Numbered from the stretch's first letter, positions 1 through 38,721 are shown. The stretch: 64,000 bases of DNA from an uncultured Alphaproteobacteria bacterium (GCA_902531755.1 CACAFI010000002.1:12321-76320); one strand, 5' to 3'. Notes: a model not told the origin generated them from the letters alone. A program made the numbers and translations.

Positions 1-1554
1 GCTCAACTCACCAGAGACGTCCCAATAAATTGCTCTTCTACCCGCTAATCCCGCAATGAACCCTGCACTATTTATAGTGAAACAAATACTCAAATCCGCG
101 GCAAAACAACTAGGAACCATTCTTGAGTATTTTGTAGAAACAATACACCTACCACATGACATAAGTTGATTTAAATCACTGGAGATTAATTCATCTTGTT
201 TTATTTTCTCAAAAGCTGCACCTTTTGATTGAATTATAATTCCATAGTCCGACTGATTTCGTATATATTTGAATATCCATCTATAAAACAAAAGAACTTC
301 GTTAGTCGTTGAGTCAATTTCTGTATGGCTGTGTGTACTATCCAGTATTGTGAAAACAGAAGTAACTTCCGAAGGGAAATTCTTCCTAATATTCTGAGCA
401 CTTCTGATATCTGCAGGAAGGATATTTTCTCCGCATATTAATCCCGTTTGAACCATGTAATCATACTTATAATTATGGCAGTTAAAATACCCGTCATTAT
501 AATCTCCCCAGGAGAACACCAAATCTGCAAATCCTACATTAAAATAAGAAATTGGGTAGTGATCAACTGACCAATGATTCCAAATAAAAATGCCTTCCTC
601 TTTTTTAACTGCTAATGCTAAACAAAGAGGGAGTGGCCAACATTCTTGATGCTGATGAACAACCTTTACATTATATTTTTTTATTATGCTTCTGTACCAT
701 TCAACAACGAAAACCAAATAAAGTTGTATTAAATACAAAGTTAATCCATTTCCCTTGAGTGTTCCTTGCATTTTTACTCTTAAAAACATTTTGAGAAGAT
801 TAATTATACTTACCTTACTTCTAAATCTCCCATTAAGGTTCACCCATGGAAATTTATGTTTTTCAATAATCTTTACATTATCTTCTGAAAACTTATCATC
901 TTTTCTTTCAAAGTATAGAACTACCCGACCTCCGTCCAATCCTGTAGAAGGATACCAAAAAAGGTGCCCCGCATGAGGGTATCTACTGAAAATATTTGAT
1001 ATATACAGAGCAAATATTTTACTTCTTTTATCATTAGCACCAATGTTTGTACTTTGTGGAAATATATGTGTATAGCCCAACAAGAGATCAAAAATTGCTT
1101 TGGCAACCAATAAGAATGGTAGAAAAACTTCCATTAAATTTATCGTTCGTGATACCGTCAAATGTTTCACTTTTGGCATATTTGAAAGCCAAATCTTAAA
1201 AATAGGGAAAGTATCGAGATAAATTGTTACCTTTTTCTGGACAGGCATACTATTTACGAAATTTCTCATTAAAAAATATAAATCTGTTTTATGTCTTATT
1301 CTCGTTAGGTACCAAGAATGGATAATTCTGCTCCAGAAGTCCTCTTTCTCAAAATAACCATTTATTTTAAGTTCCTTATCAGAAAGATACGACTTTACTA
1401 ATTGCCAGTTCAGTTCTTCCGTTGTGTAACGAATAGCCGAACCAGTTTCATCTACTCTATTGATAGATCCTAGATCGATTTGCTCCAAAAGACTTGAGCA
1501 TAAGCCAAAAGAGTTCAGAAGTTTTCTAGCAAGTGTAGAACTGTAAATGTACAT
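1..1554 (-). CDS. Hypothetical polysaccharide-island protein, 3' end beyond window (possible GT-B/capsule-synthesis-like enzyme)
   Basis: Absent from the supplied ORF track because it has no stop inside the window. I reverse-complemented and translated 1554->1 codon by codon. ATG at 1554..1552 (MYIYSSTLARKLLNSF...) stays open for 518 codons (...RYPHAGHLFWYPSTGLDGGRVVLYFERK...FSWGDYNDGYFNCHNYKYDYMVQTG...FIAGLAGRRAIYWDVSGELS). No diagnostic motif recognised. Confidence 0.55.
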   Translation of the reverse strand, partial: MYIYSSTLARKLLNSFGLCSSLLEQIDLGSINRVDETGSAIRYTTEELNWQLVKSYLSDKELKINGYFEKEDFWSRIIHSWYLTRIRHKTDLYFLMRNFVNSMPVQKKVTIYLDTFPIFKIWLSNMPKVKHLTVSRTINLMEVFLPFLLVAKAIFDLLLGYTHIFPQSTNIGANDKRSKIFALYISNIFSRYPHAGHLFWYPSTGLDGGRVVLYFERKDDKFSEDNVKIIEKHKFPWVNLNGRFRSKVSIINLLKMFLRVKMQGTLKGNGLTLYLIQLYLVFVVEWYRSIIKKYNVKVVHQHQECWPLPLCLALAVKKEEGIFIWNHWSVDHYPISYFNVGFADLVFSWGDYNDGYFNCHNYKYDYMVQTGLICGENILPADIRSAQNIRKNFPSEVTSVFTILDSTHSHTEIDSTTNEVLLFYRWIFKYIRNQSDYGIIIQSKGAAFEKIKQDELISSDLNQLMSCGRCIVSTKYSRMVPSCFAADLSICFTINSAGFIAGLAGRRAIYWDVSGELS

Positions 1555-1661
1555 AATTTGCAAATTGGGGTCCTTAAACTTAAAGAAAAAAACAAAAAGC
1601 AAGCGCCAGAGATTTATTTTCTCCCAAATTAAAATATCTCTGTACTTTTTTTTAGACAAAG

Positions 1662-4331
1662 CTAAAGAGCTAATTTTGGAATTGGAGCTATCGCCGGGGA
1701 CAAACCCCTCTCAACCAACATATCGCAGACGTTGAGTAAAAAATAATCTCTATACCTAGCAGAGATAACTTGCACTCCTAAGGGAAGGTCATCAGGTCCA
1801 AGAAAAGCGGGCAAATTTACACTTGGGACATAGCAAAGAGACCAAATTAAACTAGGGTCTATTTTTTCTCGAATGTTAGGCCCTTTCTGAGCAATCTCTG
1901 CTGTTGAGTTAGATACCATAATGTCATACTGAAATAACAGCTTATTTAATATTGCAGCGAGGTTAGCTTGCTTACCTAGTGCCGTTCGGTATTGATCGGC
2001 ACTTATCTGGTTCCCTCGATCTATCATTGCTCTTGTAGTATCACTAATTAGTTTACTTTGATTTTTATGCTCTGCCTTAAAATAGTACGAGATGGATTTA
2101 TCATAGATAATTGAATGTATCAAATGCGCTTCTTCAAATTCGCTTGGCAACCTTATTTCTTCTACATTATGCCCAAGAAAAGAACATTTATTCACAAAGT
2201 TTTGTAGCTTATTTTTGGTATAATCAGCCATTTCATTCCAGGCATGTGTTACTGGAACAGCTATTTTTAGAGAATTTTTCTTTAACATTTGATTGGTTTT
2301 ATTTTCTAAATAACGATTAACAAAAGGATAATTTTTTCCTCTTACTCTTATCGTATCTAAAGCCATTCTTAAATCATTTACTTCTAATCCCATAAATGTA
2401 ATGTGATCCAAAGTATCTGCGGTCTTAAGCACTCCTGTTCTTGGGATTATACCAAATGAAGGCTTCATACCGTATATTCCAACATAACTCGAGGGTCTAA
2501 TAGTCGAGCCTGCTGTCTGTGAACCCAAAGATACCGGCGCCATTCGAGTGGCAACTGCAACTGCAGAACCACTAGAGGATGTTCCAGGTGAACGAGTTAG
2601 ATCATAAGGATTTTTAGTTAAACCAGGGTGATCTATTGCAAATTCTGCGGTCACAGTTTTACCTAAAATGATTGACCCCTCAAGCCTCAGTTTATTTACA
2701 CATCTGGCATCATTACCTGGACAAAATCCTTTCCAAGATTTACTACCCATCTGAGTTGGATAATCTGCAGTATTGAATATATCTTTAATTGCAAATGGAA
2801 GACCACTGATATCACCTGTAAATTTATTTCGCATATTTGCATAATCAAGAAGTTTGGCTTGTAATAACGAATTTTCGAAATCATACTCAACCCATGCATT
2901 TACAGACTCTTCAACTTTTTTGTATTGTGAGTAATACGATCTTACAAGAGCTTCGATCGATATGGTTTTGCTATTAATTTTCTTTACAATCTGTGTAGCT
3001 GTTAGTTCATGAAGTTTCTGGGAACCATCGTTTTCTTGATATTTTCTACTGTCATAGTTTCTCAAAATCTTTTTTGCTTCGTGGTTCATCAAACCAAAGT
3101 TTGGAAAAACTCTAGGTGCTTGAAGGCCTAAATGTCTTCTATTTTCACGATTTATTGGAGACTTAGGATCAAGTATTTTTTGAATGGAATCATTCACGGG
3201 ACGATCCGAATCTATTGTCATATCGTCGGTAGCAGGTAAATTTCTTTTTGCGGCATCTTCTCTTTGAGCTTCCAAAACAGCTATAAATTTATCTTCCGTT
3301 ATCCCTGTTATTTTAGAATAATAACTCAAAATCTTTGGCTTAACGGGGTCTGTCTGTTTTTGAATTTCATTAGCCTCTTCAACAGTCATTAGTCCTGCTC
3401 TTACATCTTGCATGGCAAAATCTGTCCCTCTACCAAAACCTCTTTTTATATATTTTGCATAATCATGTACTCCAGGCATGATGCACTCAACACTCTTATA
3501 TTGTTTATAGGTTCCCTCAACATCCTCTTCTTTCCAATCTAAATAGTCTCTAACAAACTCCGTTTGCCTTTCAGCATCCCAAAAAATAAAATCTCCTAGA
3601 AAAATTCTTTTAAGCCCAACTGCCTCTATTTCCTCTTTTGTAGGAGACTTAAAAGGTGCTAGATCTTTTTTTGATATATCTGCACAAAGCATCTCTTCTG
3701 GTTTAACTTTAGCCGACATTTGCAAAAAATAATCTATTGAGAAATCTGGGTTGTCCAAGTAGGTAGCTTTACCCGAATTTTCAGCAACTGACTCACCATA
3801 GATCAATAAAGGTATTTTAAACTTACAAGCAATATTTAATGGGAAAGCCTCAACCCCAGTGTGGCAATGCCAGCAAGCATCACCTATTTTATACAATGAC
3901 TCCCTTGCTAACTTATTAACAAGGCCTCGTTTTGGAGTAAATTCTAGATGATCAACATTTGTCTTTTCTAAGATATTTTGAAGGTTGTATCTTCCCGTTT
4001 CTGTAAACCAATTATGACTAAAGGTTACCGCTAAAGGTTTTAGGTCATAGATCTCCGTGAGAAGATATAACTGAAAAGCGCTATCTTTCCCTCCAGAGAT
4101 CGGAACTATACAGTCGTAATTATCGCCAGCATAAGTTTTATATTTATCTAATATTTTTCTTAGGTTTTTTTCACGGGTATCCCATGAGATCTTCATCTTC
4201 TGTTCTGAGGACCTGCAAGCCTTACACAAACCAAGCTTATCAAAATCAATATTCTCACTAGTTTCGGGATAACCACACCTTACACAAGTTATCATACCTT
4301 TAAACATTTGATCCTCTACTTCCATAATCAA
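1662..4331 (-). CDS. Fusion protein: N-acetyl-sugar amidotransferase (PP-loop ATPase, WbpG/PseA-like) + amidase-signature (GatA-like) domain
   Basis: The N-terminus has a Zn-ribbon (CVRCGYP...CKAC) and a PP-loop (VPISGGKDSAF), typical of the LPS N-acetyl sugar amidotransferase family. The C-terminal ~480 aa carry the amidase signature (AIKDIF..., PGTSSSGSAVAVA...GSQTAGSTIRPSSYVGIYGMKPSFG). The ORF start is TTG at 4331, overlapping the upstream TGA; ATG at 4325 is an equally plausible start. Confidence 0.85.
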   Translation of the reverse strand: MIMEVEDQMFKGMITCVRCGYPETSENIDFDKLGLCKACRSSEQKMKISWDTREKNLRKILDKYKTYAGDNYDCIVPISGGKDSAFQLYLLTEIYDLKPLAVTFSHNWFTETGRYNLQNILEKTNVDHLEFTPKRGLVNKLARESLYKIGDACWHCHTGVEAFPLNIACKFKIPLLIYGESVAENSGKATYLDNPDFSIDYFLQMSAKVKPEEMLCADISKKDLAPFKSPTKEEIEAVGLKRIFLGDFIFWDAERQTEFVRDYLDWKEEDVEGTYKQYKSVECIMPGVHDYAKYIKRGFGRGTDFAMQDVRAGLMTVEEANEIQKQTDPVKPKILSYYSKITGITEDKFIAVLEAQREDAAKRNLPATDDMTIDSDRPVNDSIQKILDPKSPINRENRRHLGLQAPRVFPNFGLMNHEAKKILRNYDSRKYQENDGSQKLHELTATQIVKKINSKTISIEALVRSYYSQYKKVEESVNAWVEYDFENSLLQAKLLDYANMRNKFTGDISGLPFAIKDIFNTADYPTQMGSKSWKGFCPGNDARCVNKLRLEGSIILGKTVTAEFAIDHPGLTKNPYDLTRSPGTSSSGSAVAVATRMAPVSLGSQTAGSTIRPSSYVGIYGMKPSFGIIPRTGVLKTADTLDHITFMGLEVNDLRMALDTIRVRGKNYPFVNRYLENKTNQMLKKNSLKIAVPVTHAWNEMADYTKNKLQNFVNKCSFLGHNVEEIRLPSEFEEAHLIHSIIYDKSISYYFKAEHKNQSKLISDTTRAMIDRGNQISADQYRTALGKQANLAAILNKLLFQYDIMVSNSTAEIAQKGPNIREKIDPSLIWSLCYVPSVNLPAFLGPDDLPLGVQVISARYRDYFLLNVCDMLVERGLSPAIAPIPKLAL

Positions 4332-8652: not shown

Positions 8653-9699
8653 TTACTTGGTTGCTAAAACTCTTATGCCGCCATCACCAAACTTCAATTT
8701 TACGTCTTTATCATCTGGAAACATACTAACGTCAATATCGAATAATTCTGAGCTCTTCATAACCTGTATGTTATTGAAGCCCATATTTCTAAGACGTCTT
8801 TCATTTTCTTCAAATGATATAAAGTGATATTTTGCGTAAAAAATATCCATCCACAAATGTATATCAGGAATATTCAATTTTTTTATAATTTCAAAAGTAT
8901 CCCGGAAAGGAATGCCCACAAATGATTTCTGAATAATATCCCAAACGTCATGATAAATACCGCCACTTCCTTCTACATATAGCCAAAACTTCCCTCCAGG
9001 CTTTAAAACCCTGTATATTTCTTGAAGAGCTTTTCCAGGATTATCTAGATGATGAAGAACGCCATTACACGTTGCAAAATCAAAATACTCCTCCGTGAAA
9101 CTTAAATTATAAGCGTTTTGAACCGAAAAATTGGTATCTTTTATTTTCATTTCGACTGCCAATTTTTTAGCAAACTCAATGGATTTCTGTCCGGGGTCAA
9201 TACCCCAAACTTTTGCCCCAAGGCTTGCCATACAAAAACTAAACCTACCTGTACCACAACCAATATCAATACACTTTTTTCCAGTGAAAAACTTTCTATC
9301 CAGATTGTTGAGTTTTAGCCTTCCTTTTATCACATCGATCCATTTTTTATAATTATTTAAAGGATCTGATAACGTTAGCGTTCTCCAAGTATCGTTAAAA
9401 AGCTCGATATGCAGGTCATCTCGTGCGTCTCCCTCTTTTTGGGCACTAAAATTTTCAGTTTCGGAGTCATTCAAGTGTATAGACGCGATAAAGTGGTTCA
9501 TGATATCTAAATAAGAATTTTGTCTATCAAATATTTTTTTTATGTAGATGTTAGGGTCCGAGTTGGTAAAAATGTTATTATCTATTTCACGTTGTAAAGA
9601 TATCGTAGAAATTATGCGTACTGCTAGTGAAAGCCCTGACTTTTTAAAGGTTCTTAACTTTTCTTCATAAGTTTCTATATATTTTTTCGTATCTACCAT
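8653..9699 (-). CDS. Class I SAM-dependent methyltransferase with ~150-aa N-terminal extension
   Basis: Motif I CIDIGCGTGRFS and post-I/II regions (VLHHLDNPGKALQEIYRVLKPGG). Confidence 0.8.
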   Translation of the reverse strand: MVDTKKYIETYEEKLRTFKKSGLSLAVRIISTISLQREIDNNIFTNSDPNIYIKKIFDRQNSYLDIMNHFIASIHLNDSETENFSAQKEGDARDDLHIELFNDTWRTLTLSDPLNNYKKWIDVIKGRLKLNNLDRKFFTGKKCIDIGCGTGRFSFCMASLGAKVWGIDPGQKSIEFAKKLAVEMKIKDTNFSVQNAYNLSFTEEYFDFATCNGVLHHLDNPGKALQEIYRVLKPGGKFWLYVEGSGGIYHDVWDIIQKSFVGIPFRDTFEIIKKLNIPDIHLWMDIFYAKYHFISFEENERRLRNMGFNNIQVMKSSELFDIDVSMFPDDKDVKLKFGDGGIRVLATK

Positions 9700-9765: not shown

Positions 9766-10938
9766 TCAAATATTTTTATGATTTTTTCTTATCAAAATAG
9801 TGATTATCCAGAATCTGGATTGTAAATAAAAAATCGGCGAGAGTAACAGTTTATCTAGCCTAAGGATATATCTTAAAGTGATAACTATCAATGGGTTAAG
9901 TTTCCAAAGATACAACATTAAGACACCTTTAGGCTTGTGAGTTTTTTTCATAATCGACAACTCTCCTTTTAATGGTAGAAACAGTGTTTTCATGTCAAAA
10001 GAGTTTTTGCCGAAGCAATTATAAGAATAACTCTCAATATACTTTCCAAAAAAATATTCAATCAATTTCTTTTCATTAAATGAAATTTCTGATTTCCAGC
10101 GATTTATTACTTCTAAGGATTTTCCTTGCACAGGTTTGCCGGATGAACTATTTCCCAACCAGGGGTGACCACCAAGAGTACTTTCATTCAAACACGGCTT
10201 AAAAGATATTTTCAGCCAGTCTGCAAGACTACTAACTGTAGTCTCATAGTCTGAATGCAAGTCTTCATTTTTCAACCGAAACCATTTTTCTTTTTTTCTC
10301 ACAAAAGAAAATCTTTCAATTTGTTGATAATCGAGTTTTAAATCTTTAATAGCTTTTATTAAGAGGTTGGAATATCCCAATCGTCTTCTTTGAACAAAAT
10401 TACCATTAGAATTAAGAATTTGTTTTTTTATTGACATAAAATTTGCCCTGGGATCTCTTACGATTTCTATAAATTTAGAATTTTGAAAGTCTTTTGCTAA
10501 TTGGTTTAACATTGTCGCTCTTCCTGGAAACTCGATAATTACCTTTATTTTATTAAGATCCTGTCCGATGGTTATTCCATATGCTTCATGCAACGCATAG
10601 AAAACATTCAATTTTGATAGTCCGTCTCTCTTCAGTAAGCTTTTGAAAGATTTCTTATATTGTTCAATGTCGCAATTGGAAAATTTTTCTGTTCCCGATT
10701 GCACTCCATAGAGAATTCCTGTTTTGAAGTTTGAGATTTTTGTTTTAGTTGTCCAAACATAAACCATTTCATCAAGGCTCAGATCTCTTCCCTCACAAAG
10801 ATATTCCCAATTAATACTGAACTTCAATTCCATAGGTAGCATGAGTATTTCTGGATGAGAGTCGAGGATGCTTTGGACAAATCCACCACCAGCTCTTCCT
10901 GGACAAATCAAAAAACCTATTGGCAAAGATTTTAGCAA
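9766..10938 (-). CDS. Sulfotransferase-fold protein with hydrophobic C-terminal tail (divergent 5'-PSB loop)
   Basis: The N-terminal loop CPGRAGGGFVQSILDSHPEI sits where the PAPS 5'-phosphosulfate loop is expected. A 3'-phosphate motif IEIVRDPRANFMS is present. The C-terminal ~50 aa are hydrophobic. TTG start. Paralog of 32528..33688. Confidence 0.65.
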   Translation of the reverse strand: MLKSLPIGFLICPGRAGGGFVQSILDSHPEILMLPMELKFSINWEYLCEGRDLSLDEMVYVWTTKTKISNFKTGILYGVQSGTEKFSNCDIEQYKKSFKSLLKRDGLSKLNVFYALHEAYGITIGQDLNKIKVIIEFPGRATMLNQLAKDFQNSKFIEIVRDPRANFMSIKKQILNSNGNFVQRRRLGYSNLLIKAIKDLKLDYQQIERFSFVRKKEKWFRLKNEDLHSDYETTVSSLADWLKISFKPCLNESTLGGHPWLGNSSSGKPVQGKSLEVINRWKSEISFNEKKLIEYFFGKYIESYSYNCFGKNSFDMKTLFLPLKGELSIMKKTHKPKGVLMLYLWKLNPLIVITLRYILRLDKLLLSPIFYLQSRFWIITILIRKNHKNI

Positions 10939-10945
10939 TCTGCCG

Positions 10946-11671
10946 CTACCATAGTCTTTTCAAAGAGGAGTAATAAGACAAATCACTCTCACTATCCACT
11001 TCATACCAAGAATCCCCAATGGGTATTGCGGATATGGTAATACCTGCATTTAGTAGCCTTCTTAAAAGAGTAGTAATATCCATTCCCATTTTTTCTTCAA
11101 AAGAAAATTCGTTTATAATACTCAAAATTTCTTGCCACCCAATAGGCTCAATCTTGAATAACCCCATGAATTGACCCTCTATTTCCTTCAAATTCTTAGG
11201 TTTTCTTCCTATATCTGTAAGAAGTCCTTGAGAATTAATTTTAAAACTTTCAGCGTCAGATAATGGGTTAGTAAATCTTTTTGACCAAAGAGAGAACCAG
11301 TTTTTATCATAGGCCATTCCAATTGGGTCTTTTAGGATTTTTAATCTTTTGACGGCATCGCGGGAATATACAATATCCGAATAACTTATAATGCATGAAT
11401 ACTTTTCCAGCCAGTCCCTAGCAGTTAATAAAGAAGCCAAGATATTTGAGTTTTGCCAATTGCTATTTACAAAATATCGTAAATCTTCGGAAAACATTTG
11501 CCTTTTGTATCCGGTAACAATTGCGATTTCCTTAATTCCGGCACCTCGAAGCGAACTTAATTGCCAGTCAATTAATCTTTTCCCATGTAGTTCTATAAAG
11601 CATTTAGGTTGATTTATAGTGAGGTCTCGCATCCTACTACCTCGACCTGCTGCAAGTATAATAGCTTTCAT
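10946..11671 (-). CDS. Nucleotidyltransferase (cytidylyltransferase family; Cj1416-like candidate CTP:phosphoglutamine cytidylyltransferase)
   Basis: MKAIILAAGRGSRM...QPKCF NTP-transferase signature. Size is 241 aa. ATGA overlap with the upstream GATase gene. Confidence 0.75.
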   Translation of the reverse strand: MKAIILAAGRGSRMRDLTINQPKCFIELHGKRLIDWQLSSLRGAGIKEIAIVTGYKRQMFSEDLRYFVNSNWQNSNILASLLTARDWLEKYSCIISYSDIVYSRDAVKRLKILKDPIGMAYDKNWFSLWSKRFTNPLSDAESFKINSQGLLTDIGRKPKNLKEIEGQFMGLFKIEPIGWQEILSIINEFSFEEKMGMDITTLLRRLLNAGITISAIPIGDSWYEVDSESDLSYYSSLKRLW

Positions 11672-12288
11672 GCTTGACCATTAAACACAGAATTTAATCT
11701 TTCAATATCATACCTTCTAAATGTTTTAAAACGTTCCGGATGCCACATCCATCCTTCCCATGGTAAACTTTTATGCTCAATTGCTTCAATACAGCCATCG
11801 TTAGCACTGGCGAGTAAATTATAGTCATTTGGCATTTTTTTAAATGCAAACTTGTGAAAACTATTTACAACCCCCGATATTCGCCCAGTAACTTCGTGAA
11901 CTTTATTTGAATGATCATTAATTGGTTCCAGTACACCGCCACTCCTTGTTCCCAAAACTTGCATTCCCCTGCAAATTCCTAAAACAGGTAAATTACCTTT
12001 TTCTGCAAAATCTAAAAGCCAATTTTCGTTATCATCCCTTTCCTTGTTTTCTAATAAATCGTTCCCTCCAGAAAGAATAAATGCTGATAGGTCCAATTCC
12101 CTAACCCAACCGATTAACTCTTCCTGACGTTTACTGGTGTCTGAATTCATACTGAGTTTGTTTGGTATCGGTATTGGTAAAAAGCCAGATGTTTTTATAA
12201 AAGCGATTAATTTCTGATCTAAAGCATCTCGATATTCAGAACGATTTGGTTTGAAATCTATTCTCTGACTGACGCCAACCCGTCTCAA
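11668..12288 (-). CDS. Class I glutamine amidotransferase / peptidase C26 fold hydrolase (Cj1417-like candidate gamma-glutamyl-CDP-amidate hydrolase)
   Basis: Nucleophile elbow GICRGMQVL and WMWHPE His-Glu motif. The track ORF extends to 12348, 64 nt into the upstream gene. A TTG at 12288..12286 overlaps the upstream TGA (TTGA) and precedes the conserved RVGVSQR N-terminus, so I place the start there. Confidence 0.75.
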   Translation of the reverse strand: MRRVGVSQRIDFKPNRSEYRDALDQKLIAFIKTSGFLPIPIPNKLSMNSDTSKRQEELIGWVRELDLSAFILSGGNDLLENKERDDNENWLLDFAEKGNLPVLGICRGMQVLGTRSGGVLEPINDHSNKVHEVTGRISGVVNSFHKFAFKKMPNDYNLLASANDGCIEAIEHKSLPWEGWMWHPERFKTFRRYDIERLNSVFNGQA

Positions 12289-14600
12289 GCAAGGATCTCC
12301 ACTTTTCTGCTCGCACAGTCGATATGTAATTTTTGAGCATTCGACCAAAGATTATACAACGCTTCTCCGGCGCCGATTACAGCTGGTAACCCTAACTCTC
12401 CCGCTCTGATAGCCATATGAGAATTTGCGCCTCCCCAAGCAGTTATCAAGCCAGAAATAGGAAAGGAAAACAGCCAGTCAAAGCCTGGGTCTGCATTTTC
12501 AATACATACGATAGAACCTGACAGTTGCTCATGAGAAATGTTATTTAAGACACTAGCAGTGACTTGTTTTTGAGTAATAAAGTTTGGAACAGTATTTGGC
12601 CAATCAAAGGCCCAAACGTCTTCTGGTTTTACTATTAGTGGTGGTAATACTGTCTTTAAAGAATCTAAATAATTTTTTTTTCCTTCATCAATACTTCGAG
12701 ATAATATGTTTTTAATATTGGTTGCTGAAACATGAAGTTCTTTAAATATTTGAATATCACAATACGCAAGATCTTCGCGTGAATATCCATAAATCTCTCC
12801 AAATTTTTGGATATAGGATATTGCATCTGAAAGATTTCGCGTAAATTTAAATTTGGCTAACTCTCTTAATTCAATACCAGTTTTTATAAATTCTATTAAT
12901 CCCTGTGGATCAAGTTCGAGCCTATGAAACTTTATAAGTTCCTCAATTTCCTTTATTTGCCGTGAATTTGGAGCGAACGGACTTGATTTCTTGGCATTAG
13001 CTGGTTTCAAATCCCAGTTAAAGTAGAGTTCAGGTGACTCGTCATAACGTGGAGATGTTATATCATATGTTCCAGGTCTCAAATGACCGTAATGGGAAAG
13101 AAAATCTTGTTTATTTAGGCGAGTTCGGTCAGTAGCCATCTGGCTGTTAATGTTGACAAGACCCGTCATAAAAGCATCGAAGTCTTCTTTAGAGAAAACG
13201 TTTTTTGCTAATAAAGAATGAAGAAATTGTACGGCGATAAAGCCTACTCTTGCAAGTCCCGCAAAAGGCAAGGTACCGTATCGTTTCGTATCTTCTAGCA
13301 ACCAATAAATTTTCTCCAGACAATCCATATTTGATTGGTTTATAATTTTTCTTCTTTTCTCCAAAACATTAAGCTTTTTGGAGTCATTGAGCCACAATCC
13401 ATCTTTAGGATCTACAATCCTTTTTGTAAGTTTCCTTAAACTATCGGCTATCAAAACCAATTCTGAACTTGAAAAACCATCCTTTTTAAGCTCATCCAAA
13501 CGATCCTGTAAATCTAACGTATAACAAGAAAAAACAATATCAAACTCTATCTTATCATGAAGGTAGGGTTCTTTTAATAACCTATCAATATAATAATCGA
13601 TAAGACGTGCTGCTAAACCTTCATCTAAGGAAGCTGGAATAAATGAATTAAAGGACACGCGGACATCGATATAGGGTAATCCAAAAAAATGAGGCATCAA
13701 CGGAAAGCTTCTTAGATTGCGATATCCATAATTATGCCGTTGATATGCCCAAATTGAGTCAGTTACTAATTCTCGATAAAGAGAAAGAGCCAAAGGTTTT
13801 GGACGAATACCTACTATTTCTGCAGGATTCCAATCGGGCATCACACCATAAACAGTCCTTTTTCCCATTAAAAAAGGATGGGCTTGCATATTTTTAGATA
13901 GTTTTTGTTCTAATTGTAGGAGTCTTATTTTTTGTTCACTTTCCGTTTCAGGTTTTTTACCCAAGTAGAGTGGTCTAACTTGTAACAACCAGAGATCTTC
14001 TATCTCATTATTGAAGGTGGATGCAAATTCAACATCTAGTGGTTTATTAATAAAGATCTGCAAGAGTTCTTCAATAAGGTCTATAACTTGACCATGAACC
14101 TTTGGAATATTCTTAGTACATTTTGCAGCTTGTTGCCACATTTTACTATCTTGTCCGCCAGTAACAATTGCTGTATTATTTCCCTCAGACCAATTTATTA
14201 ACCTGTATGGCGTGCAAGTGTTCGGATCATGAGAAAAAGCAACACCTGAGCGTATGACATTTGTTAACATTCTCTGAACTAAAATTTGACTTTTATCTTC
14301 TTTTCCTTTGTAGCTTGCTATTACCTTTTCAATAGCCAAATTTAATTCGTTAAGGCGTAGGTTTGGAATAGACAAAAACTCACCGGCAGCTGAGTGCCCT
14401 TCTTGATCTTCAGTACAACAACTGGAACGTACTATCAATGGAAAGTCACCTAAATTTTTCTCAATCATTTTTAAACAAGCTATCGGATCAATTCGCCAAT
14501 CATCTACTGAAAAAAATACAAATTCAGGAATCGTTGCTTTTCTAACGATCTTTTTTAATTTATTAAGAGTGATAGCTTTAGTAGAAAATATTTGCGACAT
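12285..14600 (-). CDS. ATP-grasp (PPDK_N-type) + C-terminal phosphohistidine swivel-domain kinase lacking a PEP/pyruvate TIM barrel (Cj1418-like candidate L-glutamine kinase)
   Basis: N-terminal LIVRSSCCTEDQEGHSAAGEF. The mobile-domain motif GGANSHMAIRAGELGLPAVIG lies ~44 aa from the C-terminus. Size is 771 aa. Confidence 0.75.
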   Translation of the reverse strand: MSQIFSTKAITLNKLKKIVRKATIPEFVFFSVDDWRIDPIACLKMIEKNLGDFPLIVRSSCCTEDQEGHSAAGEFLSIPNLRLNELNLAIEKVIASYKGKEDKSQILVQRMLTNVIRSGVAFSHDPNTCTPYRLINWSEGNNTAIVTGGQDSKMWQQAAKCTKNIPKVHGQVIDLIEELLQIFINKPLDVEFASTFNNEIEDLWLLQVRPLYLGKKPETESEQKIRLLQLEQKLSKNMQAHPFLMGKRTVYGVMPDWNPAEIVGIRPKPLALSLYRELVTDSIWAYQRHNYGYRNLRSFPLMPHFFGLPYIDVRVSFNSFIPASLDEGLAARLIDYYIDRLLKEPYLHDKIEFDIVFSCYTLDLQDRLDELKKDGFSSSELVLIADSLRKLTKRIVDPKDGLWLNDSKKLNVLEKRRKIINQSNMDCLEKIYWLLEDTKRYGTLPFAGLARVGFIAVQFLHSLLAKNVFSKEDFDAFMTGLVNINSQMATDRTRLNKQDFLSHYGHLRPGTYDITSPRYDESPELYFNWDLKPANAKKSSPFAPNSRQIKEIEELIKFHRLELDPQGLIEFIKTGIELRELAKFKFTRNLSDAISYIQKFGEIYGYSREDLAYCDIQIFKELHVSATNIKNILSRSIDEGKKNYLDSLKTVLPPLIVKPEDVWAFDWPNTVPNFITQKQVTASVLNNISHEQLSGSIVCIENADPGFDWLFSFPISGLITAWGGANSHMAIRAGELGLPAVIGAGEALYNLWSNAQKLHIDCASRKVEILA

Positions 14601-14606
14601 GGAAAA

Positions 14607-15389
14607 TTAATCCTTGCGTTTTGCAGACCAAGCTCTTGTTAGATAGATTGCTTCAATAGTTTTTTTTGAAGAAACTTTGCTCTTTACAAAATCTAAAAAC
14701 TCATTAAATTTCTTTGGCCCTAATTGCCTCTGAAGATCATTTACTGAACGCCAAGCTCCCATATAGCGAGCAGGACTCATAGAAATAGTATGCCTACCCT
14801 CCAAATACACCACATCCTCAAAATATGGCGAAGACCAAAGCAGTTCTGTCAGATTTTCTGTAATACCTGATCTACCAGAAGACACCCTTTTAATATCAGG
14901 TTTCAAATTTTTAAGAAAGGCCTCTATCTCTAAAAATAATGGATTGCTCTCAACAAGTCGTGGATTCCATAATGCTGTAAAATAACCACCAGATTTTAGA
15001 AGGCGGTGAAACTCCTTTGTTGCTTGACCAAAATTTGCCCAATGAAAAGCAGAGGCCATCGTTATCCAATCAACCGAACTACTTTCCAGACTTATCTCTT
15101 CAGCTTTACCAGACTGCCATTCTATAGACATATCTCTACTGTCCAACTTTCCTCGCTGTAGCATTTCCTCATTAGGTTCTATTGCTTTAGCAGACTTTAC
15201 CCCACTCTGGTAGACCATACGTGTCCAAATGCCTGTTCCTGCACCTACATCTAGAAAATCAATGTCGTATGTATTTTTGTTCAAAAGACCAAACAATCCT
15301 CTTAATACAGACGGGCTATAATCGGGCCTATGTTCTGAGTAATCTTTTGATAAACCGCTAAAATCACCTGCTTTTATTATCTTAGTCAT
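14607..15389 (-). CDS. Class I SAM-dependent methyltransferase (Cj1419/Cj1420-like position)
   Basis: Motif I FLDVGAGTGIWT, then LLKSGGYF. Size is 260 aa. Confidence 0.8.
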   Translation of the reverse strand: MTKIIKAGDFSGLSKDYSEHRPDYSPSVLRGLFGLLNKNTYDIDFLDVGAGTGIWTRMVYQSGVKSAKAIEPNEEMLQRGKLDSRDMSIEWQSGKAEEISLESSSVDWITMASAFHWANFGQATKEFHRLLKSGGYFTALWNPRLVESNPLFLEIEAFLKNLKPDIKRVSSGRSGITENLTELLWSSPYFEDVVYLEGRHTISMSPARYMGAWRSVNDLQRQLGPKKFNEFLDFVKSKVSSKKTIEAIYLTRAWSAKRKD

Positions 15390-15399
15390 ATAATTTATT

Positions 15400-15960
15400 T
15401 TAACTCAATTTATTCATTAAATCGAAAGCAATATCAAATGCCTTCCGGTCTGGATGATAGTTAACCACCCAGTCCGGGGAAAAAGGCTCATCGACATCTA
15501 AATCAAGGCCGGCCACATTTTTTAATTCGCCGCTATTATAGCTACTATAGATTTGTTTTGAGTCTCTCCTTTGAAGTATGTCTAATGGAACATGTAGATA
15601 TACTTCAAAGTAGCTTTTTAGGTTCTTTCTATTCCAAATGTGTACCTCCTTAAAAAGTGAAATAGTTGCAATAACAACTATAAATCCCTGCTTAACCAGA
15701 AGCCGACCTACTTTGCTATATTGAAAAGCTAATTTAATCCGCTCATTCTTAGTATAACTACCCGCTTTTTCATGATCTAATCGCAAAATTTCTCTTAGGT
15801 CATCACCATCCAACAAAACTGCCTTCAAACCTTTTTTTTCCAACAGTGAAATAAAGTTCCTAGCAACGGTGGACTTACCTGAACCAGAAAGTCCTGTGAT
15901 CCATATTAACTTTTTTTTTAACACTTTATTTAGGCCTTCCAAATTTAACCGAACTTTCAT
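15400..15960 (-). CDS. APS-kinase-fold P-loop kinase, divergent (Cj1415-like candidate CDP-amidate 3'-kinase; alternatively CysC)
   Basis: LIWITGLSGSGKSTVA Walker A and VLLDGDDLR. The following region differs from the canonical CysC pattern retained by the second copy at 36789. Confidence 0.7.
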   Translation of the reverse strand: MKVRLNLEGLNKVLKKKLIWITGLSGSGKSTVARNFISLLEKKGLKAVLLDGDDLREILRLDHEKAGSYTKNERIKLAFQYSKVGRLLVKQGFIVVIATISLFKEVHIWNRKNLKSYFEVYLHVPLDILQRRDSKQIYSSYNSGELKNVAGLDLDVDEPFSPDWVVNYHPDRKAFDIAFDLMNKLS

Positions 15961-32527: not shown

Positions 32528-33688
32528 CTAAAATGTATATCTGTTTGAAAGCAAGTAAAATATAAGCCTTCCTCTATTAATCGGATACATGAGCAGATTG
32601 TTGATAGTATATACAAAAAATTTCATAAAAAACCAAAATGAAAGACCTCTCTTACCAAATCTAGATCGCTTTAGTGCCTCTTTATGAGGAAGAATTTCTC
32701 CTTTCCAAGGTAGAAAGCAAGCAAATAGAGCCAATATTTTATTTGAAAATGACTTAGGGAAGACACCTTTATACCCTAAGGCGTTCATGCTATTCTCAAA
32801 TAAAAACTCTATCATTCTAATTTCAGAAGAAGACATTTGAGTTCTCCAGCGAAAAGCAATTTCAGGGTTTATTCCAGTTATACCAGTGTCATTAAATGCA
32901 CTACTCGAAATGCTTGGCTTACCAATTCTAGTGGTTTTGAGCAGATTTTTGTTGAACTCCACGCCCAACCAGCGACATAGACTTGAAATGGTTCTTTTTG
33001 GGGCAGTCAAAATCTCCTCATGCTTTACAATCTTTAGCCTATCTTTAAAAGTTTTTTGATTTCGATGAAGCATTTTCATATTTGTCACCATATAGTCGTT
33101 CAGAATATGAAAAAATACGTTTCTTATTGTCCCGGAAATTGGGTTCATGGTACCCAGAGCTTGTCTATAATATTCCTTAAGAGAGTGAATGTTAGACCTA
33201 TGATCTTTTAAGATGTGAATAAATCGAGCTTCTGGAAAATCTTTAATTATAAAGCTCGTATAGTCACTATAGTAACCATCAGCAACAATTATTTTAAGTT
33301 TTTGGAAATCCTTTTTTAGAACTTTTGCGAAAGCGTAATAAATGGCAATTCGTGTGTTACGAGAGCAAACATGATTTTTGGATAAATATTGCCTGAAAAA
33401 CTTTTCATATAATTTCCAATTTATCATGGAGTAATCTTGTCTAGCACCCATATTTATAAAATAATCTTGCTTAAAGTTGACGATTTTTGAGGAGTAAAGA
33501 ACCTTATCGACTACATCATCAATGCTACTTTCATTATTAAGTTTGTTCTGGATCCAAACGGAACTAAATTTATCATTGAATGGCAGAACAACTATTTCGT
33601 CGTGATTGTCTAACAGAGTCCTCAATAAATCTGAACCGGATCTACCAGCCCCTTGCAAAAAAACTATAGGAAGTTGTTCAAATCTCAT
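32528..33688 (-). CDS. Sulfotransferase family protein with hydrophobic C-terminal tail
   Basis: Canonical-like 5'-PSB loop LQGAGRSGSDLLRTLLDNHDEI and 3'-phosphate region IHILKDHRSNIHS. Paralog of 9766..10938. Confidence 0.7.
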   Translation of the reverse strand: MRFEQLPIVFLQGAGRSGSDLLRTLLDNHDEIVVLPFNDKFSSVWIQNKLNNESSIDDVVDKVLYSSKIVNFKQDYFINMGARQDYSMINWKLYEKFFRQYLSKNHVCSRNTRIAIYYAFAKVLKKDFQKLKIIVADGYYSDYTSFIIKDFPEARFIHILKDHRSNIHSLKEYYRQALGTMNPISGTIRNVFFHILNDYMVTNMKMLHRNQKTFKDRLKIVKHEEILTAPKRTISSLCRWLGVEFNKNLLKTTRIGKPSISSSAFNDTGITGINPEIAFRWRTQMSSSEIRMIEFLFENSMNALGYKGVFPKSFSNKILALFACFLPWKGEILPHKEALKRSRFGKRGLSFWFFMKFFVYTINNLLMYPINRGRLIFYLLSNRYTF

Positions 33689-33939: not shown

Positions 33940-35010
33940 ATGACGACCTTGAAACTAAAATCTGAGCAGTTTTTGGATTGCTTAAACATTGCGGGGGGGT
34001 TGTTTAATCCTTTAGACGGGTTCATGTCATGTAAGGAAATTAATAGTGTATTGAATGACCTCTATTTGTTAAATGGTTCGCCATGGACAATTCCTATATC
34101 TCTAGACGTCCCTTATGAAATTTACTTCCGAAAAAGTCAGATAGATATTATGTCGCTTGAATTTGATCACAAGGGTGTTGGTAGTTTAGAGGTAGATGGT
34201 TTTTATGAGTTAGATCAACAAGCTTACATAAAAGCTCTTTATGGAACAGAAGATGAAGAACACCCCGGTGTAAAACAAGAAATGACAAAATCAAAATACA
34301 GGGTTGCTGGCAAGATTAAAATAAATGAAAAGGTTATGCGAAACTATATCGAGTCTGCTGAGATAATAAAATCTCAATTGAAGGGGAAAGGATGGGACTC
34401 AATAGTTGGGTTCCAGACAAGAAATCCTATCCATAGAGCGCACGAATATCTTCAAAGAACTGTTTTGGAGCTTTTTGATGGATTGTTTATAAATCCCTTA
34501 ACTGGATGGAAGAAGAAAGGTGACTTTACTGAAAAAGCAGTGCTAAACGGTTATGAAGCGATGATAGAGAATTATTATTCTGGATTAAATGTCTTTATGA
34601 AACCTCTTAGAACCTCTATGAAATATGCAGGGCCTAAAGAAGCAATACATCATGCGATACTAAGAAAGAACATTGGTTGCACTCACTTTATAGTAGGTAG
34701 AGATCATGCTGGGGTGTCAAACTATTATGGAGATTATGAAGCCCACTCGTTGATTAATAAATTAAAAATGAACGGATATAATATAGGCATTAAAATACTT
34801 TTAATGAAGGAACCAGTTTATTGTAATTTTTGTGGACATGTGGTTACAGAAAACTCTTGTTCACATGAATCTAAATATAAGGAAAAAATAAGTGGAACCC
34901 AAATAAGACTTTTGTTAAAACGAGGCGAAATGCCTCCAGCCAGATTCATGAGAGAAGAAGTATCGAAGGCTGTAATGAGCTTAGGCAAAAATATATTTAT
35001 AAACTCATGA
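33940..35010 (+). CDS. sat: Sulfate adenylyltransferase (ATP sulfurylase, single-subunit Sat type)
   Basis: QTRNPIHRAHEYL and VGRDHAGV motifs. Size is 356 aa. Confidence 0.9.
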   Translation: MTTLKLKSEQFLDCLNIAGGLFNPLDGFMSCKEINSVLNDLYLLNGSPWTIPISLDVPYEIYFRKSQIDIMSLEFDHKGVGSLEVDGFYELDQQAYIKALYGTEDEEHPGVKQEMTKSKYRVAGKIKINEKVMRNYIESAEIIKSQLKGKGWDSIVGFQTRNPIHRAHEYLQRTVLELFDGLFINPLTGWKKKGDFTEKAVLNGYEAMIENYYSGLNVFMKPLRTSMKYAGPKEAIHHAILRKNIGCTHFIVGRDHAGVSNYYGDYEAHSLINKLKMNGYNIGIKILLMKEPVYCNFCGHVVTENSCSHESKYKEKISGTQIRLLLKRGEMPPARFMREEVSKAVMSLGKNIFINS

Positions 35011-35020
35011 AAGGATTTCA

Positions 35021-35965
35021 ATGGAAAAGATAATTGCAACTGTAGGGCCATCTCTTTTAAACCAATATCCGATAAATAAAGTATATTCAGATGATTTAAT
35101 TTTCCGCGTAAATGGTGCACATGGAAGCATATCTCATATAAAAGAGTATATAGAAAAAATAAGAAGAGAGAGAAAAGATGCATTAATTCTTATGGATTTG
35201 CCAGGCAATAAAATCAGAACAAATAATATAAACGAACCTATAAAACTAAAAGTTGGAGAACCATTTGAATTAAATTTCCAACAGACCAACTTTGCTAACT
35301 TTTTTAAATATATTAAGAAAGGAGACAAAGTTTGGGCAAATGACTCGACTTATGAATTTGAAGTTATGAAAGTAAATCAAGAGCATGAAATTATTACCTT
35401 TCTTTCTAAATCCGAAGGTCTTCTTCTAAACAATAAAGGAATGCATGTGAGGGGAATTCATAAGGATATTCCCTTCCTTTTTGATAAAGACATCAAACTT
35501 ATTGAATTAGCAAATAAGATGGATTTACAATTTATCGGTCTATCGTTTGTTAGAAACTTGAAAGATATAAAAAGTGCTAAAGAGCTTGTTAACCAGAATG
35601 TACAAATTATTACAAAGGTTGAGACGAAGGCTGCCGTTGAGAATCTTAACGAAATTTTAAATAATACCGACTTTATATTAATTGACAGAGGAGACCTATC
35701 AACTGAAGTAGGTCTGGAAAATATACCGTCTTACCAGAAGCATATCTTAAGTATAGCTAAGGTGCACGGAGTAAAAACATTTTTGGCAACACAATTTCTT
35801 AAAAATATGGAACACAACCCTGTCCCATCGATACCAGAGATAATAGATTTATATAACACCATTACAGAGGGTATTTATGGCATTCAACTGTCTGAAGAAA
35901 CTGCTGTCGGCAAGCATCCCTATAGCTGTATACAACTCGTAAGAAACATGTTAAAAAAAACCTAG
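35021..35965 (+). CDS. Pyruvate kinase-like protein, A+B domains only (no C-terminal regulatory domain)
   Basis: PK motifs are present: FRVNGAHG, MDLPGNKIRT, KVETKAAVENL, IDRGDLSTEVG, ATQFLKNM, SEETAVGKHP. The PTRAE motif is altered to PSIPE, and the protein ends ~25 aa after GKHP. Confidence 0.75.
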   Translation: MEKIIATVGPSLLNQYPINKVYSDDLIFRVNGAHGSISHIKEYIEKIRRERKDALILMDLPGNKIRTNNINEPIKLKVGEPFELNFQQTNFANFFKYIKKGDKVWANDSTYEFEVMKVNQEHEIITFLSKSEGLLLNNKGMHVRGIHKDIPFLFDKDIKLIELANKMDLQFIGLSFVRNLKDIKSAKELVNQNVQIITKVETKAAVENLNEILNNTDFILIDRGDLSTEVGLENIPSYQKHILSIAKVHGVKTFLATQFLKNMEHNPVPSIPEIIDLYNTITEGIYGIQLSEETAVGKHPYSCIQLVRNMLKKT

Positions 35966-36078
35966 TTTTATAAGAGCAGAGTGAGAAATAAAACTTTAAA
36001 AATTATGTTGTTCTTTCGGTGAGTGTGCTTGAAGAAAATTAATAATATTTTTAAAAAAAGAAAAAGGATCTATCTGAT

Positions 36079-36792
36079 TTGGAGCTTTTACTTTACACCA
36101 CTATTGTAATAGTTTGCTTTGTTCAATCCATATTTGGAGTAGGAGTACTTTTATTAGGAACACCAACATTACTTATATTAGGTTATTCTTTTGTTGAGAC
36201 ACTGTCTCATTTGTTACCATTGTCACTTTTAATTAACTGCCTTCAGATCTATAACAATGGAAAAATAGTAGATTGGAACTTCATCAAACTTCTTCTTTTT
36301 TTCTCCATTCCCTCGACTGGTATTTGTCTGTATCTATCCTTATATTTTAGTTTTGATATTAGCCTAATTTTAGGCATATTTATGGTGATGTTAGCTCTAA
36401 AAAATACCACTCAAAAAATTGAAAAAGTTTTCAGTTTTTTGTTAAAAAAAGATATTGCTGTATTCACTTTCTTAGGGGTAATTCATGGCTTTACTAATTT
36501 GGGTGGCTCGATATTATCCATGAAGATTTTTATCCTTGATTATGATAAAGATATGAAAAGGGCAACAATGGCTACCGCATATTTTTTATTAGCAATAATC
36601 CAACTTTCTATCATTTTTTTAACGCAGCAGAGACTCAAATTTGACCCTACTTTTCTTCTGTTAGGAATAGCAACTTTTATTGTAACAGAACAATTTGTTT
36701 TCAAAAATCTTAGCCTGAAGCTCTTTGATAAGCTTTTTGCATATATAATTTTGATATTTGGTCTAAGCTTAATTATCAAGAGTGTCATATGA
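36079..36792 (+). CDS. TSUP (TauE/SafE) family membrane transporter
   Basis: 237 aa, ~7-8 hydrophobic helices with an internal repeat (GVGVLLLGTP / FTNLGGSIL). TTG start. Confidence 0.7.
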   Translation: MELLLYTTIVIVCFVQSIFGVGVLLLGTPTLLILGYSFVETLSHLLPLSLLINCLQIYNNGKIVDWNFIKLLLFFSIPSTGICLYLSLYFSFDISLILGIFMVMLALKNTTQKIEKVFSFLLKKDIAVFTFLGVIHGFTNLGGSILSMKIFILDYDKDMKRATMATAYFLLAIIQLSIIFLTQQRLKFDPTFLLLGIATFIVTEQFVFKNLSLKLFDKLFAYIILIFGLSLIIKSVI

Positions 36793-37310
36793 TCATCTGG
36801 CTAATTGGAATTTCTGGATCAGGAAAATCTACGTTGGGCAATTTGTTGTTTTCACAAATATCTAAAACGGGAAATAAAGTTCGGTTGATTGATGGCGATA
36901 TCGTTAGAGATTTTTTTAACAATGATCTTGGTTATTCTAGAAAAGCTAGAGAAGAAAATATAAAAAGAATAATCTATGGTGCTTATCTATTAGAAAACGA
37001 AAATATTATCACCATTGTGTGCAACATCTCACCTTTTCAAAAACTAAGATACTTCTGCAGGAATAACTTTAAACAATATATAGAGATTTATTTAGAAAAA
37101 GATTATGAAACAGCAAAAATAAATGATTTTAAGGGTGTCTATAAAAATAACAAGATCTTGTCCAACGATATAGTGGGACGTGATATAATGTTTGAAGATC
37201 CAGTTACTTGCGACTTAAGAATTTCAACAGATAATTGCACTATTGAGCATGCGATGAAGCAAATAACTGAATTTCTTAATAATAATACCGACCTAGAGAT
37301 AAAAAGCTAA
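36789..37310 (+). CDS. cysC: Adenylyl-sulfate (APS) kinase
   Basis: IWLIGISGSGKSTLG, LIDGDIVR and LGYSRKAREENIKRI match the CysC pattern. ATGA overlap with the TSUP gene, in an operon with sat. Confidence 0.8.
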   Translation: MIIWLIGISGSGKSTLGNLLFSQISKTGNKVRLIDGDIVRDFFNNDLGYSRKAREENIKRIIYGAYLLENENIITIVCNISPFQKLRYFCRNNFKQYIEIYLEKDYETAKINDFKGVYKNNKILSNDIVGRDIMFEDPVTCDLRISTDNCTIEHAMKQITEFLNNNTDLEIKS

Positions 37311-37475: not shown

Positions 37476-37988
37476 TTGGAAAGCTGTAACGGCCATAACT
37501 GGTTTGTAGCACAATATAAGCCCAACTCATTTTTTATAGCAACGAAAAATCTCGAGAGACAAGGTTGTACAACATTTATGCCACTAGTGGAGTTAACTAG
37601 TAGGAAAAAGACAAGTTTCTTGACGGAGAAAAAGCCCTTATTCCCAGGGTATATATTCATTTCATTTGATGAAAAGAAATTCCACTGGTCGGCAATCAAC
37701 AATACATTAGGCTTGAGCAGATTATTAGTTATGGATAATCATCCACAAATTGTACCAAAATCTTTCATTCAATCTCTAAAGGCTAGGTGTGATAACAACG
37801 GGAAACTGTTAAAAAAACCATCTATCGAAATCGGCTCTAGAGTTGAGGTAATAAAAGGGCCATTCTCTAAGGTCATCGGAGCAATTGAAACAATACACCC
37901 TGAAAAACGGCTTTCGTTCCTATTTGAAATTCTAGGAAGACAAACAAAAATAACGCTACCTAAGTCTGATGTGATGAATATAACTTAG
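37476..37988 (+). CDS. rfaH: RfaH-like specialised NusG paralog (transcription antiterminator)
   Basis: Aligns by eye along its whole length with E. coli RfaH: WFVAQYKPNS, NLERQG, KKPLFPGYIFISFD, INNTLGLSRLL, IVPKSFI. The KOW region is IGSRVEVIKGPFSKVIGAI. TTG start. Confidence 0.8.
   Translation: MESCNGHNWFVAQYKPNSFFIATKNLERQGCTTFMPLVELTSRKKTSFLTEKKPLFPGYIFISFDEKKFHWSAINNTLGLSRLLVMDNHPQIVPKSFIQSLKARCDNNGKLLKKPSIEIGSRVEVIKGPFSKVIGAIETIHPEKRLSFLFEILGRQTKITLPKSDVMNIT

Positions 37989-38644: not shown

Positions 38645-38721
<77 letters not shown>

Follow-up and report, generated by a model that had tools for sequence, protein, structure and literature searches.

How bacteria place phosphoramidate groups on their surface sugars is the question raised by a glycan-biosynthesis island of an uncultured Alphaproteobacteria bacterium (GCA_902531755.1, CACAFI010000002.1:12321-76320), of which a stretch of 64,000 nucleotides (hereafter, the window) was analyzed. 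In this island, a 390-residue protein of the sulfotransferase fold (hereafter, the target) is encoded beside a cassette of the type involved in the formation of O-methyl-phosphoramidate (MeOPN) in Campylobacter jejuni, a pathway whose transfer step has, to our knowledge, never been reconstituted. The literature of 2025 describes 3'-phospho-cytidine-diphosphate-amidate (3'-phospho-CDP-amidate) as the "likely donor", while the transferases Cj1421 and Cj1422 have been assigned by knockouts only (PMC11800397). A first-pass annotation of the window had proposed that one sulfotransferase-fold paralog was recruited to transfer phosphoramidate instead of sulfate. Comparative linkage now sustains this proposal, while the use of the donor is something that we infer. 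We put at roughly 0.58 the probability that the target is a phosphoramidate transferase using 3'-phospho-CDP-amidate, and it is probably the missing enzyme that places phosphoramidate on a cell-surface sugar. What the analysis shows is its fold and motifs, a strict genomic linkage, an active-site signature and the mutual exclusion between such genes and those coding for TagF-like enzymes. In the openly searchable literature, we found no paper joining phosphoramidate, sulfotransferase and glutamine kinase, and no proposal of a sulfotransferase-fold phosphoramidate transferase.

A sulfotransferase fold beside a phosphoramidate cassette

The target matches the Pfam family Sulfotransfer_3 (E 5.3e-10; 40.4 bits for a cut-off of 27) and its AlphaFold2 model, computed with 21 sequences as input, reached a pLDDT of 91.3 and a pTM of 0.88. 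When this model was searched against the PDB with Foldseek, all 43 matches at E <= 0.001 were sulfotransferase-fold proteins, nearly all of them 3'-phosphoadenosine-5'-phosphosulfate (PAPS) sulfotransferases, including TPST1 and TPST2, the sulfotransferase domains of CurM and OLS, Stf9 and heparan 3-OSTs, plus retinol dehydratase. TPST1/2 and CurM ranked at the top, and the matches to the TPST, CurM and OLS structures had E-values of 1e-9 to 7e-8. Likewise, the target family profile aligned with TPST1 (E 4e-18) over both the 5' strand-loop-helix motif and the 3'-phosphate motif. The sulfotransferase layout initially read from the sequence by eye is thus borne out, as is its 3'-phosphate-type motif VRDPRANFMS, located at residues 160-169 and aligned with the TPST motif VRDGRASVHS. 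Across the clade, including members at no more than 33% identity, 31 residues do not vary, among which R161 and S169 of this motif, E225 and H228, and both R15 and E37 are retained in every member having its N-terminus. Regarding the 5'-phosphosulfate-binding-type loop (PGRAGGG at residues 13-19; G14-R15-A16-G17-G18-G19-F20), R15 and G17 are kept and the Ser and both Thr positions are occupied by Ala, Gly and Gly.

The target has in common with TPST-like enzymes the 3'-phosphate motif RDxRAxxxS and the LDxHP helix that follows the 5' loop. However, it departs from them by a GRAGGG loop instead of PRSGTT, by Glu136 instead of the catalytic Lys158 of TPST2, by an Asn in place of the Tyr of the YEQL strand and a His in place of the Val four residues on, and by an additional C-terminal helical tail of about 50 residues. 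Unlike these enzymes, it is encoded by a gene tied to the phosphoramidate cassette and not to PAPS synthesis genes. The tail (residues ~339 to 389) consists of hydrophobic, amphipathic helices and is also found in a paralog encoded further along the window, in agreement with the hydrophobic ends first noticed on both proteins. Membrane anchoring, which had been claimed as well, is not established, because the 19-residue Kyte-Doolittle maxima of the target (1.54) and of the paralog (1.23) are below the usual transmembrane threshold, with no clear transmembrane segment; it stands as a possibility.

Upstream of the target, five genes of the same strand, running from 15960 to 10946, constitute the cassette. 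As first noted, the adjoining gene is of the Cj1416 type, but the spacer, then given as 8 nt, counts 7 nt (cggcaga). On sequence grounds, it is confirmed that the window holds a complete Cj1415-1418-type (mpnA-D) cassette together with a methyltransferase, with a match under cut-off for the MpnB-type hydrolase. Indeed, the best named match of the latter is NF045546 (gamma-glutamyl-CDP-amidate hydrolase), at 99 bits for a cut-off of 250, and its real start probably lies downstream of the listed TTG. Relatives of the MpnA-type kinase at 61-63% identity carry the JGI name glutamine kinase, and the mpnA-D-type products measure 771/226/241/186 amino acids here versus 779/200/253/170 in C. jejuni (PMC7901785).

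Linkage of the target clade to the cassette

Close relatives of the target are rare: they form 20 clusters among 5.8 billion proteins, and nine of these clusters are at 32-96% identity, whereas the glutamine-kinase family exceeds 7,000 clusters. All the recovered contexts of relatives at 36% identity or more hold the cassette, in at least four gene arrangements: nucleotidyltransferase-sulfotransferase-MT348-AsnB, MT348 being a 348-residue methyltransferase (the window, L004-6 and L124), nucleotidyltransferase-sulfotransferase-CTP_transf_3 (P0004), nucleotidyltransferase-methyltransferase-sulfotransferase (L132), and a reshuffled cassette in which the sulfotransferase gene is divergent from that of the glutamine kinase (L001-3, L089/L090). 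By comparison, cassette genes were found in none of 33 metagenome loci having a sulfotransferase at 27% identity or less, about 12 of which span more than 10 kb.

The paralog of the target offers an internal point of reference. Its GAGRSGS loop and its location beside the sat genes, both pointed out in the first-pass annotation, were confirmed by sequence and Pfam. Together with its orthologs in L126 (49% identity) and L131 (46.5%), it belongs to the same family as the target, of which it has the length and the C-terminal tail at 26% identity, but it differs by a canonical GRSGS loop and the absence of His228, Tyr224 being kept in the L126 ortholog and not in the window copy. In a neighbor-joining tree, the target clade and that of the paralog are sisters. 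It is never linked to the cassette in its three contexts (the window, L126 and L131) and, in the window and L131, it stands beside sulfate-activation genes. The phylogenetic profile against glutamine-kinase genes, envisaged at the outset, hence has a simple outcome: the target clade is always found with the cassette and its sister clade never, so that each clade accompanies the genes making its own 3'-phosphonucleotide. Besides, a PK-like protein recurs with the paralog-type sulfotransferase and an adenosine-5'-phosphosulfate (APS) kinase both in the window and in L131 (6968-9885).

A broader survey was performed by scanning GTDB species genomes with the glutamine-kinase alignment. The best 80 loci, at 49% identity or more and none from Campylobacter, came from Pseudomonas, Leptospira alexanderi, Prochlorococcus, Synechococcus, SAR116, Aeromonas, Methylobacter, Opitutia, Bacteroidota and others. 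A core of the same five genes recurs across these loci, with the Cj1416/MpnC-type gene inside the cassette in 66 of them and the 260-residue methyltransferase present in 51. Iterated profile searches combined with Pfam identified a sulfotransferase-domain gene in 23 loci, the proteins belonging to several subfamilies, some of them TPR-fused. This gene directly adjoins the core in 16 of the 22 loci that could be scored, when about 4 are expected from random placement within the locus (0 of 200,000 simulated runs attained 16). In 28 of the 80 loci, the core is flanked instead by a TagF-like, CDP-glycerol-type phosphotransferase (Glyphos_transf), including Pfam-negative Pseudomonas proteins termed 'c9'. 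These TagF-like enzymes, whose GT-B fold is unrelated to that of the target, occupy the same cassette-flanking positions as the sulfotransferase-fold genes, yet the two never occur together (0/80, for about 8 expected if independent; Fisher one-sided p = 5e-6, phylogeny ignored). Two enzymes that replace each other at a single step would be expected to show such mutual exclusion, which suggests that both kinds of neighbors serve the same step. In the window, searches with the TagF-like, c9 and c14 profiles gave no open reading frame (ORF) with an E-value under 0.07.

Some of these loci have features of their own. The 'c9' proteins (390 residues, upstream of Pseudomonas cassettes) were considered as hidden sulfotransferases and rejected (hhalign probability of 0.2%), being remote TagF-like proteins. 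In Pseudomonas L067-L078 (e.g., L071:8233-9912), a flagellin gene is followed directly downstream by those of the glutamine kinase, hydrolase and cytidylyltransferase, with a TagF-like gene nearby and no 260-residue methyltransferase, which suggests that the flagellin glycan bears phosphoramidate in unmethylated form. Fusions of TPR and sulfotransferase-fold domains are encoded immediately upstream of the cassette kinase in L030 (5871-8618, 915 residues) and L032 (296-2695, 799 residues), their hosts being Noviherbaspirillum and a Gallionellaceae metagenome-assembled genome.

The active-site signature

Cassette-linked and unlinked proteins differ by an active-site signature. The 5' loop of unlinked proteins reads [KR][SC]GT[TS], versus a G-[SG]-x-F type in the cassette-linked clades; position 224 is a Tyr or Phe within a (Y/F)E(D/N)L strand versus Leu, Asn or His; and position 228 is Val, Leu or Ile versus His. 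At position 136, a Lys is found in 72% of unlinked proteins, while a Glu is invariant in the target clade. In the target itself, the signature reads N224-E225-x-x-H228. Of 16 linked proteins, 14 have His228, as against none of 25 unlinked ones (p = 3e-9, phylogeny ignored), and among 166 relatives retrieved from 1.84 billion representatives, His228 varies together with the absence of an aromatic residue at 224 (69/8/54/31, p = 1e-4). The PGRAGGG loop had been singled out at first as the distinguishing feature of the target. It turned out to be particular to the target clade, and it is not a general discriminator since other linked clades keep GRSGS; as a determinant of specificity it was therefore set aside, the consistent differences being at positions 224, 228 and 136.

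In TPST2, Arg78, Glu99 and Lys158 are experimentally supported catalytic residues (PMC10951654). This triad is incomplete in the target: R15 is kept, the candidate base E37 is one residue off the position of Glu99, and the equivalent of Lys158 is Glu136, located, with the same spacing as in TPST2, 25 residues before the 3'-phosphate Arg.

The signature was submitted to a blind test. For P0015, a protein at 25% identity with N224/H228 whose context was unknown, linkage was predicted, and its locus (L133) has a full cassette 1.5 kb upstream. Its relatives in L092, L094 and L095, which share the same unusual FGHCG loop, have Y224/V228 and are unlinked. We would tentatively extend the assignment to all sulfotransferase-fold proteins with a non-aromatic residue 224 and His228, as widespread and previously unrecognized phosphoramidate transferases using 3'-phospho-CDP-amidate, a generalization for which the odds lean somewhat to the negative side.

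Two further groups are worth describing. A second cassette-linked sulfotransferase clade, 'c12' (L023, L028, L044, L046, L052, L053, L061 and L063), lacks all three catalytic residues of the TPST type: its loop Arg is frequently lost, no acidic residue follows the conserved Pro and Lys does not occur at 136. A conserved His lies three residues after position 136, in addition to His228. Its active site has been remodeled more deeply than that of the target clade. As for the L128 sulfotransferase, it has the linked-like residues L224/Q228 with no cassette within 10 kb. At L128:16237-17022, a pair of short NTP_transferase pieces, 95 and 112 residues long, suggests a decayed nucleotidyltransferase gene.

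Proposed reaction, rival explanations and significance

We propose that a sulfotransferase-fold enzyme has been taken over by the MeOPN pathway. If it works like C. jejuni Cj1415-1418, the cassette would make 3'-phospho-cytidine-5'-diphosphoramidate in four steps: the glutamine kinase would generate glutamine phosphate, the cytidylyltransferase would convert it into CDP-glutamine, the hydrolase would release CDP-amidate and the APS-kinase-like kinase would add the 3'-phosphate. The target would bind this PAPS look-alike with R161 and S169 of its 3'-phosphate motif and with a 5' loop of P-loop-like kind (G14-G19, R15), and catalyze an in-line reaction in which a sugar hydroxyl attacks the terminal phosphorus, with E37 as the likely base and H228 and H117 as clade-specific candidates. 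The products would be a sugar phosphoramidate and 3',5'-CDP, and the 260-residue methyltransferase would add the O-methyl group before or after transfer. In this scheme, we infer which donor and acceptor are used, which residues catalyze the reaction and when methylation takes place. As a possible source of the O-methyl group, the first-pass annotation had suggested another methyltransferase, MT348. However, MT348 and AsnB recur at 61-66% identity in loci devoid of cassette (L128/L129; the same pair is recognized by Pfam in L130) and both are missing from the cassette context P0004. MT348 is thereby ruled out by context as the MeOPN methylase, and the O-methyl step is better assigned to the 260-residue methyltransferase, which is the best candidate.

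Compared by size and context only, Cj1421 and Cj1422 resemble the target in being encoded beside mpnA-D-type genes and a methyltransferase, and the step predicted for the target, in which phosphoramidate is transferred to a sugar hydroxyl, would be the same as theirs. They differ by their size (609-642 residues versus 390) and by a phase-variable poly-G tract, no run of six or more G or C being present in the target gene. No recognizable Cj1416-1418 chains were found in the PDB and NCBIfam has no model for any candidate transferase.

Several points weigh against the target being a phosphoramidate transferase. Genomic linkage is no proof of donor use, and the L001 cassette is also adjoined by an unassigned 413-residue protein. 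The two linked clades may be one, in which case linkage and signature would go back to one and the same evolutionary event and the p-values would exaggerate their independence. Residues 20 and 224 may line the base pocket, the Tyr of the YED strand presumably contacting the base, and base contact by the signature residues is proposed by analogy. In cytosolic SULTs, Trp53 after the loop stacks on adenine (PMC1847840). In 29 of the 80 loci, the cassette has neighbors of neither kind, sulfotransferase-fold or TagF-like, hence the transferase can lie elsewhere; in C. jejuni 81-176, the transferase CJJ81176_1435 is located away from the cassette (PMC3907429). Finally, the full PAPS pathway is encoded in the window, making sulfation by the target chemically possible, and PAPS would fit its 3'-phosphate and 5' loops no less well than the CDP analogue.

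These last points favor the alternative that survives best, although we consider it unlikely: the target would be an ordinary PAPS-dependent polysaccharide sulfotransferase, present near the cassette only since sulfate and MeOPN decorate the same glycan in these lineages. Sulfotransferases are indeed frequent in glycan loci, sat and a second APS kinase are available in the window, and the target keeps the full fold, the 3'-phosphate motif and the 5' loop Arg. Such an enzyme is nevertheless hard to reconcile with a linkage that is strict over at least four gene orders and several phyla, when the nearest unlinked clade is the one that, in two contexts, neighbors the genes of sulfate activation. 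It would explain neither the avoidance of TagF-like genes, nor the Glu at the position of the catalytic Lys and the loss of the conserved aromatic residue 224, nor the correct forecast of a cassette in the blind test.

We regard as more doubtful that the real transferase is orfX, at the edge of the window, or a gene outside the window, with the target performing an accessory step (hydrolysis, editing or a non-sugar acceptor) on the same donor. The first-pass annotation had seen no large Cj1421/Cj1422-type transferase; a large ORF of unrecognized family, orfX, does exist in the island. At 644 residues, its size is near that of the C. jejuni MeOPN transferases (609-642 residues; PMC7901785), TagF-like transferases likewise adopt a GT-B fold, and the 29 cassette loci deprived of a recognized transferase nearby are compatible with a distant gene. 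Yet orfX matches neither the TagF-like nor the c9 profiles, and its rare family (644-700 residues; PF27878 'PFTS_polysacc', for which the local Pfam copy gave no match) occurs in five further contexts without cassette, where GNAT, GFO/IDH/MocA, CTP_transf_3 and amidase (or AsnB) genes always precede it. Its distribution follows that of the CMP-sugar synthetase/amidase module and not that of the cassette. The orfX protein is therefore unlikely to be the phosphoramidate transferase, and is probably the transferase of a modified nonulosonic-acid-type sugar. That the target is catalytically dead or purely nucleotide-binding, as a scaffold or sensor for the 3'-phosphonucleotide, is very improbable: the equivalent of TPST2 Lys158 is lost and both 5' loop hydroxyl residues are Gly, but the 31 clade-invariant residues include R161, S169, E225 and H228, R15 and E37 are conserved, the pocket is predicted with high confidence and the operon position is that of transferases in other loci.

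The features discussed here are collected in Table 1. The glycan-biosynthesis island, on the minus strand, extends from before position 1 of the window to ~38 kb, where its end is marked by a NusG-family gene and a tRNA-Phe gene. The amidotransferase/amidase fusion that it encodes is conserved in L004, L124, L126 and L131. A promoter and terminator scan returned fewer sites than expected by chance.

Table 1. Features of the window (positions counted from its first nucleotide)
Feature	Position	Strand	Remarks
orfX	1..1556	-	cut by window edge; 644 aa (amino acids) in P0141 (L124:10001-11935); GT-B fold; PF27878
WbuX-type/GatA-like fusion	1662-4331	-	889 aa; WbuX-type N-acetyl-sugar amidotransferase (TIGR03573, 306 bits) + GatA-like amidase
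MT348	8653..9699	-	348-aa S-adenosylmethionine (SAM) methyltransferase; travels with AsnB + nonulosonic-acid module
Target ORF	9766..10938	-	390 aa, TTG start; sulfotransferase fold, candidate phosphoramidate transferase
Cj1416/MpnC-type nucleotidyltransferase	10946..11671	-	NTP_transf_3, MobA-like, 241 aa; by context, putative CTP:phosphoglutamine cytidylyltransferase
Cj1417/MpnB-type hydrolase	11668..12348	-	class-I amidotransferase fold; NF045546 match; gamma-glutamyl-CDP-amidate hydrolase-like
Cj1418/MpnA-type L-glutamine kinase	12285..14600	-	771 aa; PPDK_N + PEP-utilizers mobile domain; PRK05849, 953 bits
260-aa SAM methyltransferase	14607..15389	-	cassette core member, Cj1419/1420-like position
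Cj1415/MpnD-type kinase	15400..15960	-	APS-kinase fold; PRK05541, 185 bits; by context, putative CDP-amidate 3'-kinase
Paralogous sulfotransferase	32528..33688	-	Sulfotransfer_3, E 4.6e-16
Sulfate-activation module	33940..37310	+	divergent from paralog
sat	33940-35010	+	
PK-barrel-only protein	35021-35965	+	314 aa; between sat and TauE/APS kinase
TauE	36079-36792	+	
APS kinase	36789-37310	+	second of the window
NusG-family gene	37476-37988	+	possibly RfaH-like operon antiterminator
tRNA-Phe	38645-38719	-	near island end
685-aa ORF	47706-49763	+	outside the glycan island; signal-peptide-like N-terminus; no Pfam or NCBIfam match

The assignment of the target as a phosphoramidate transferase, if true, would account for the addition of a 3'-phosphate in the MeOPN pathway: as the sulfotransferase fold reads the 3'-phosphate, it would give a structural reason for this puzzling phosphorylation step. 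Were the extension to all signature-bearing proteins to hold as well, surface glycans decorated with phosphoramidate would be common far outside Campylobacter, among marine SAR116, Prochlorococcus, Synechococcus, Leptospira, methylotrophs and other bacteria, and TagF-like enzymes would represent an alternative solution in Pseudomonas and its relatives. If confirmed, phosphoryl-type transfer would widen the repertoire of a fold that has so far been associated essentially with sulfuryl transfer, and the signature would serve to find phosphoramidate-modified glycans in environmental and pathogenic bacteria. The cassette-bound sulfotransferase-fold enzyme is a concrete and easily testable candidate for the MeOPN transfer step.

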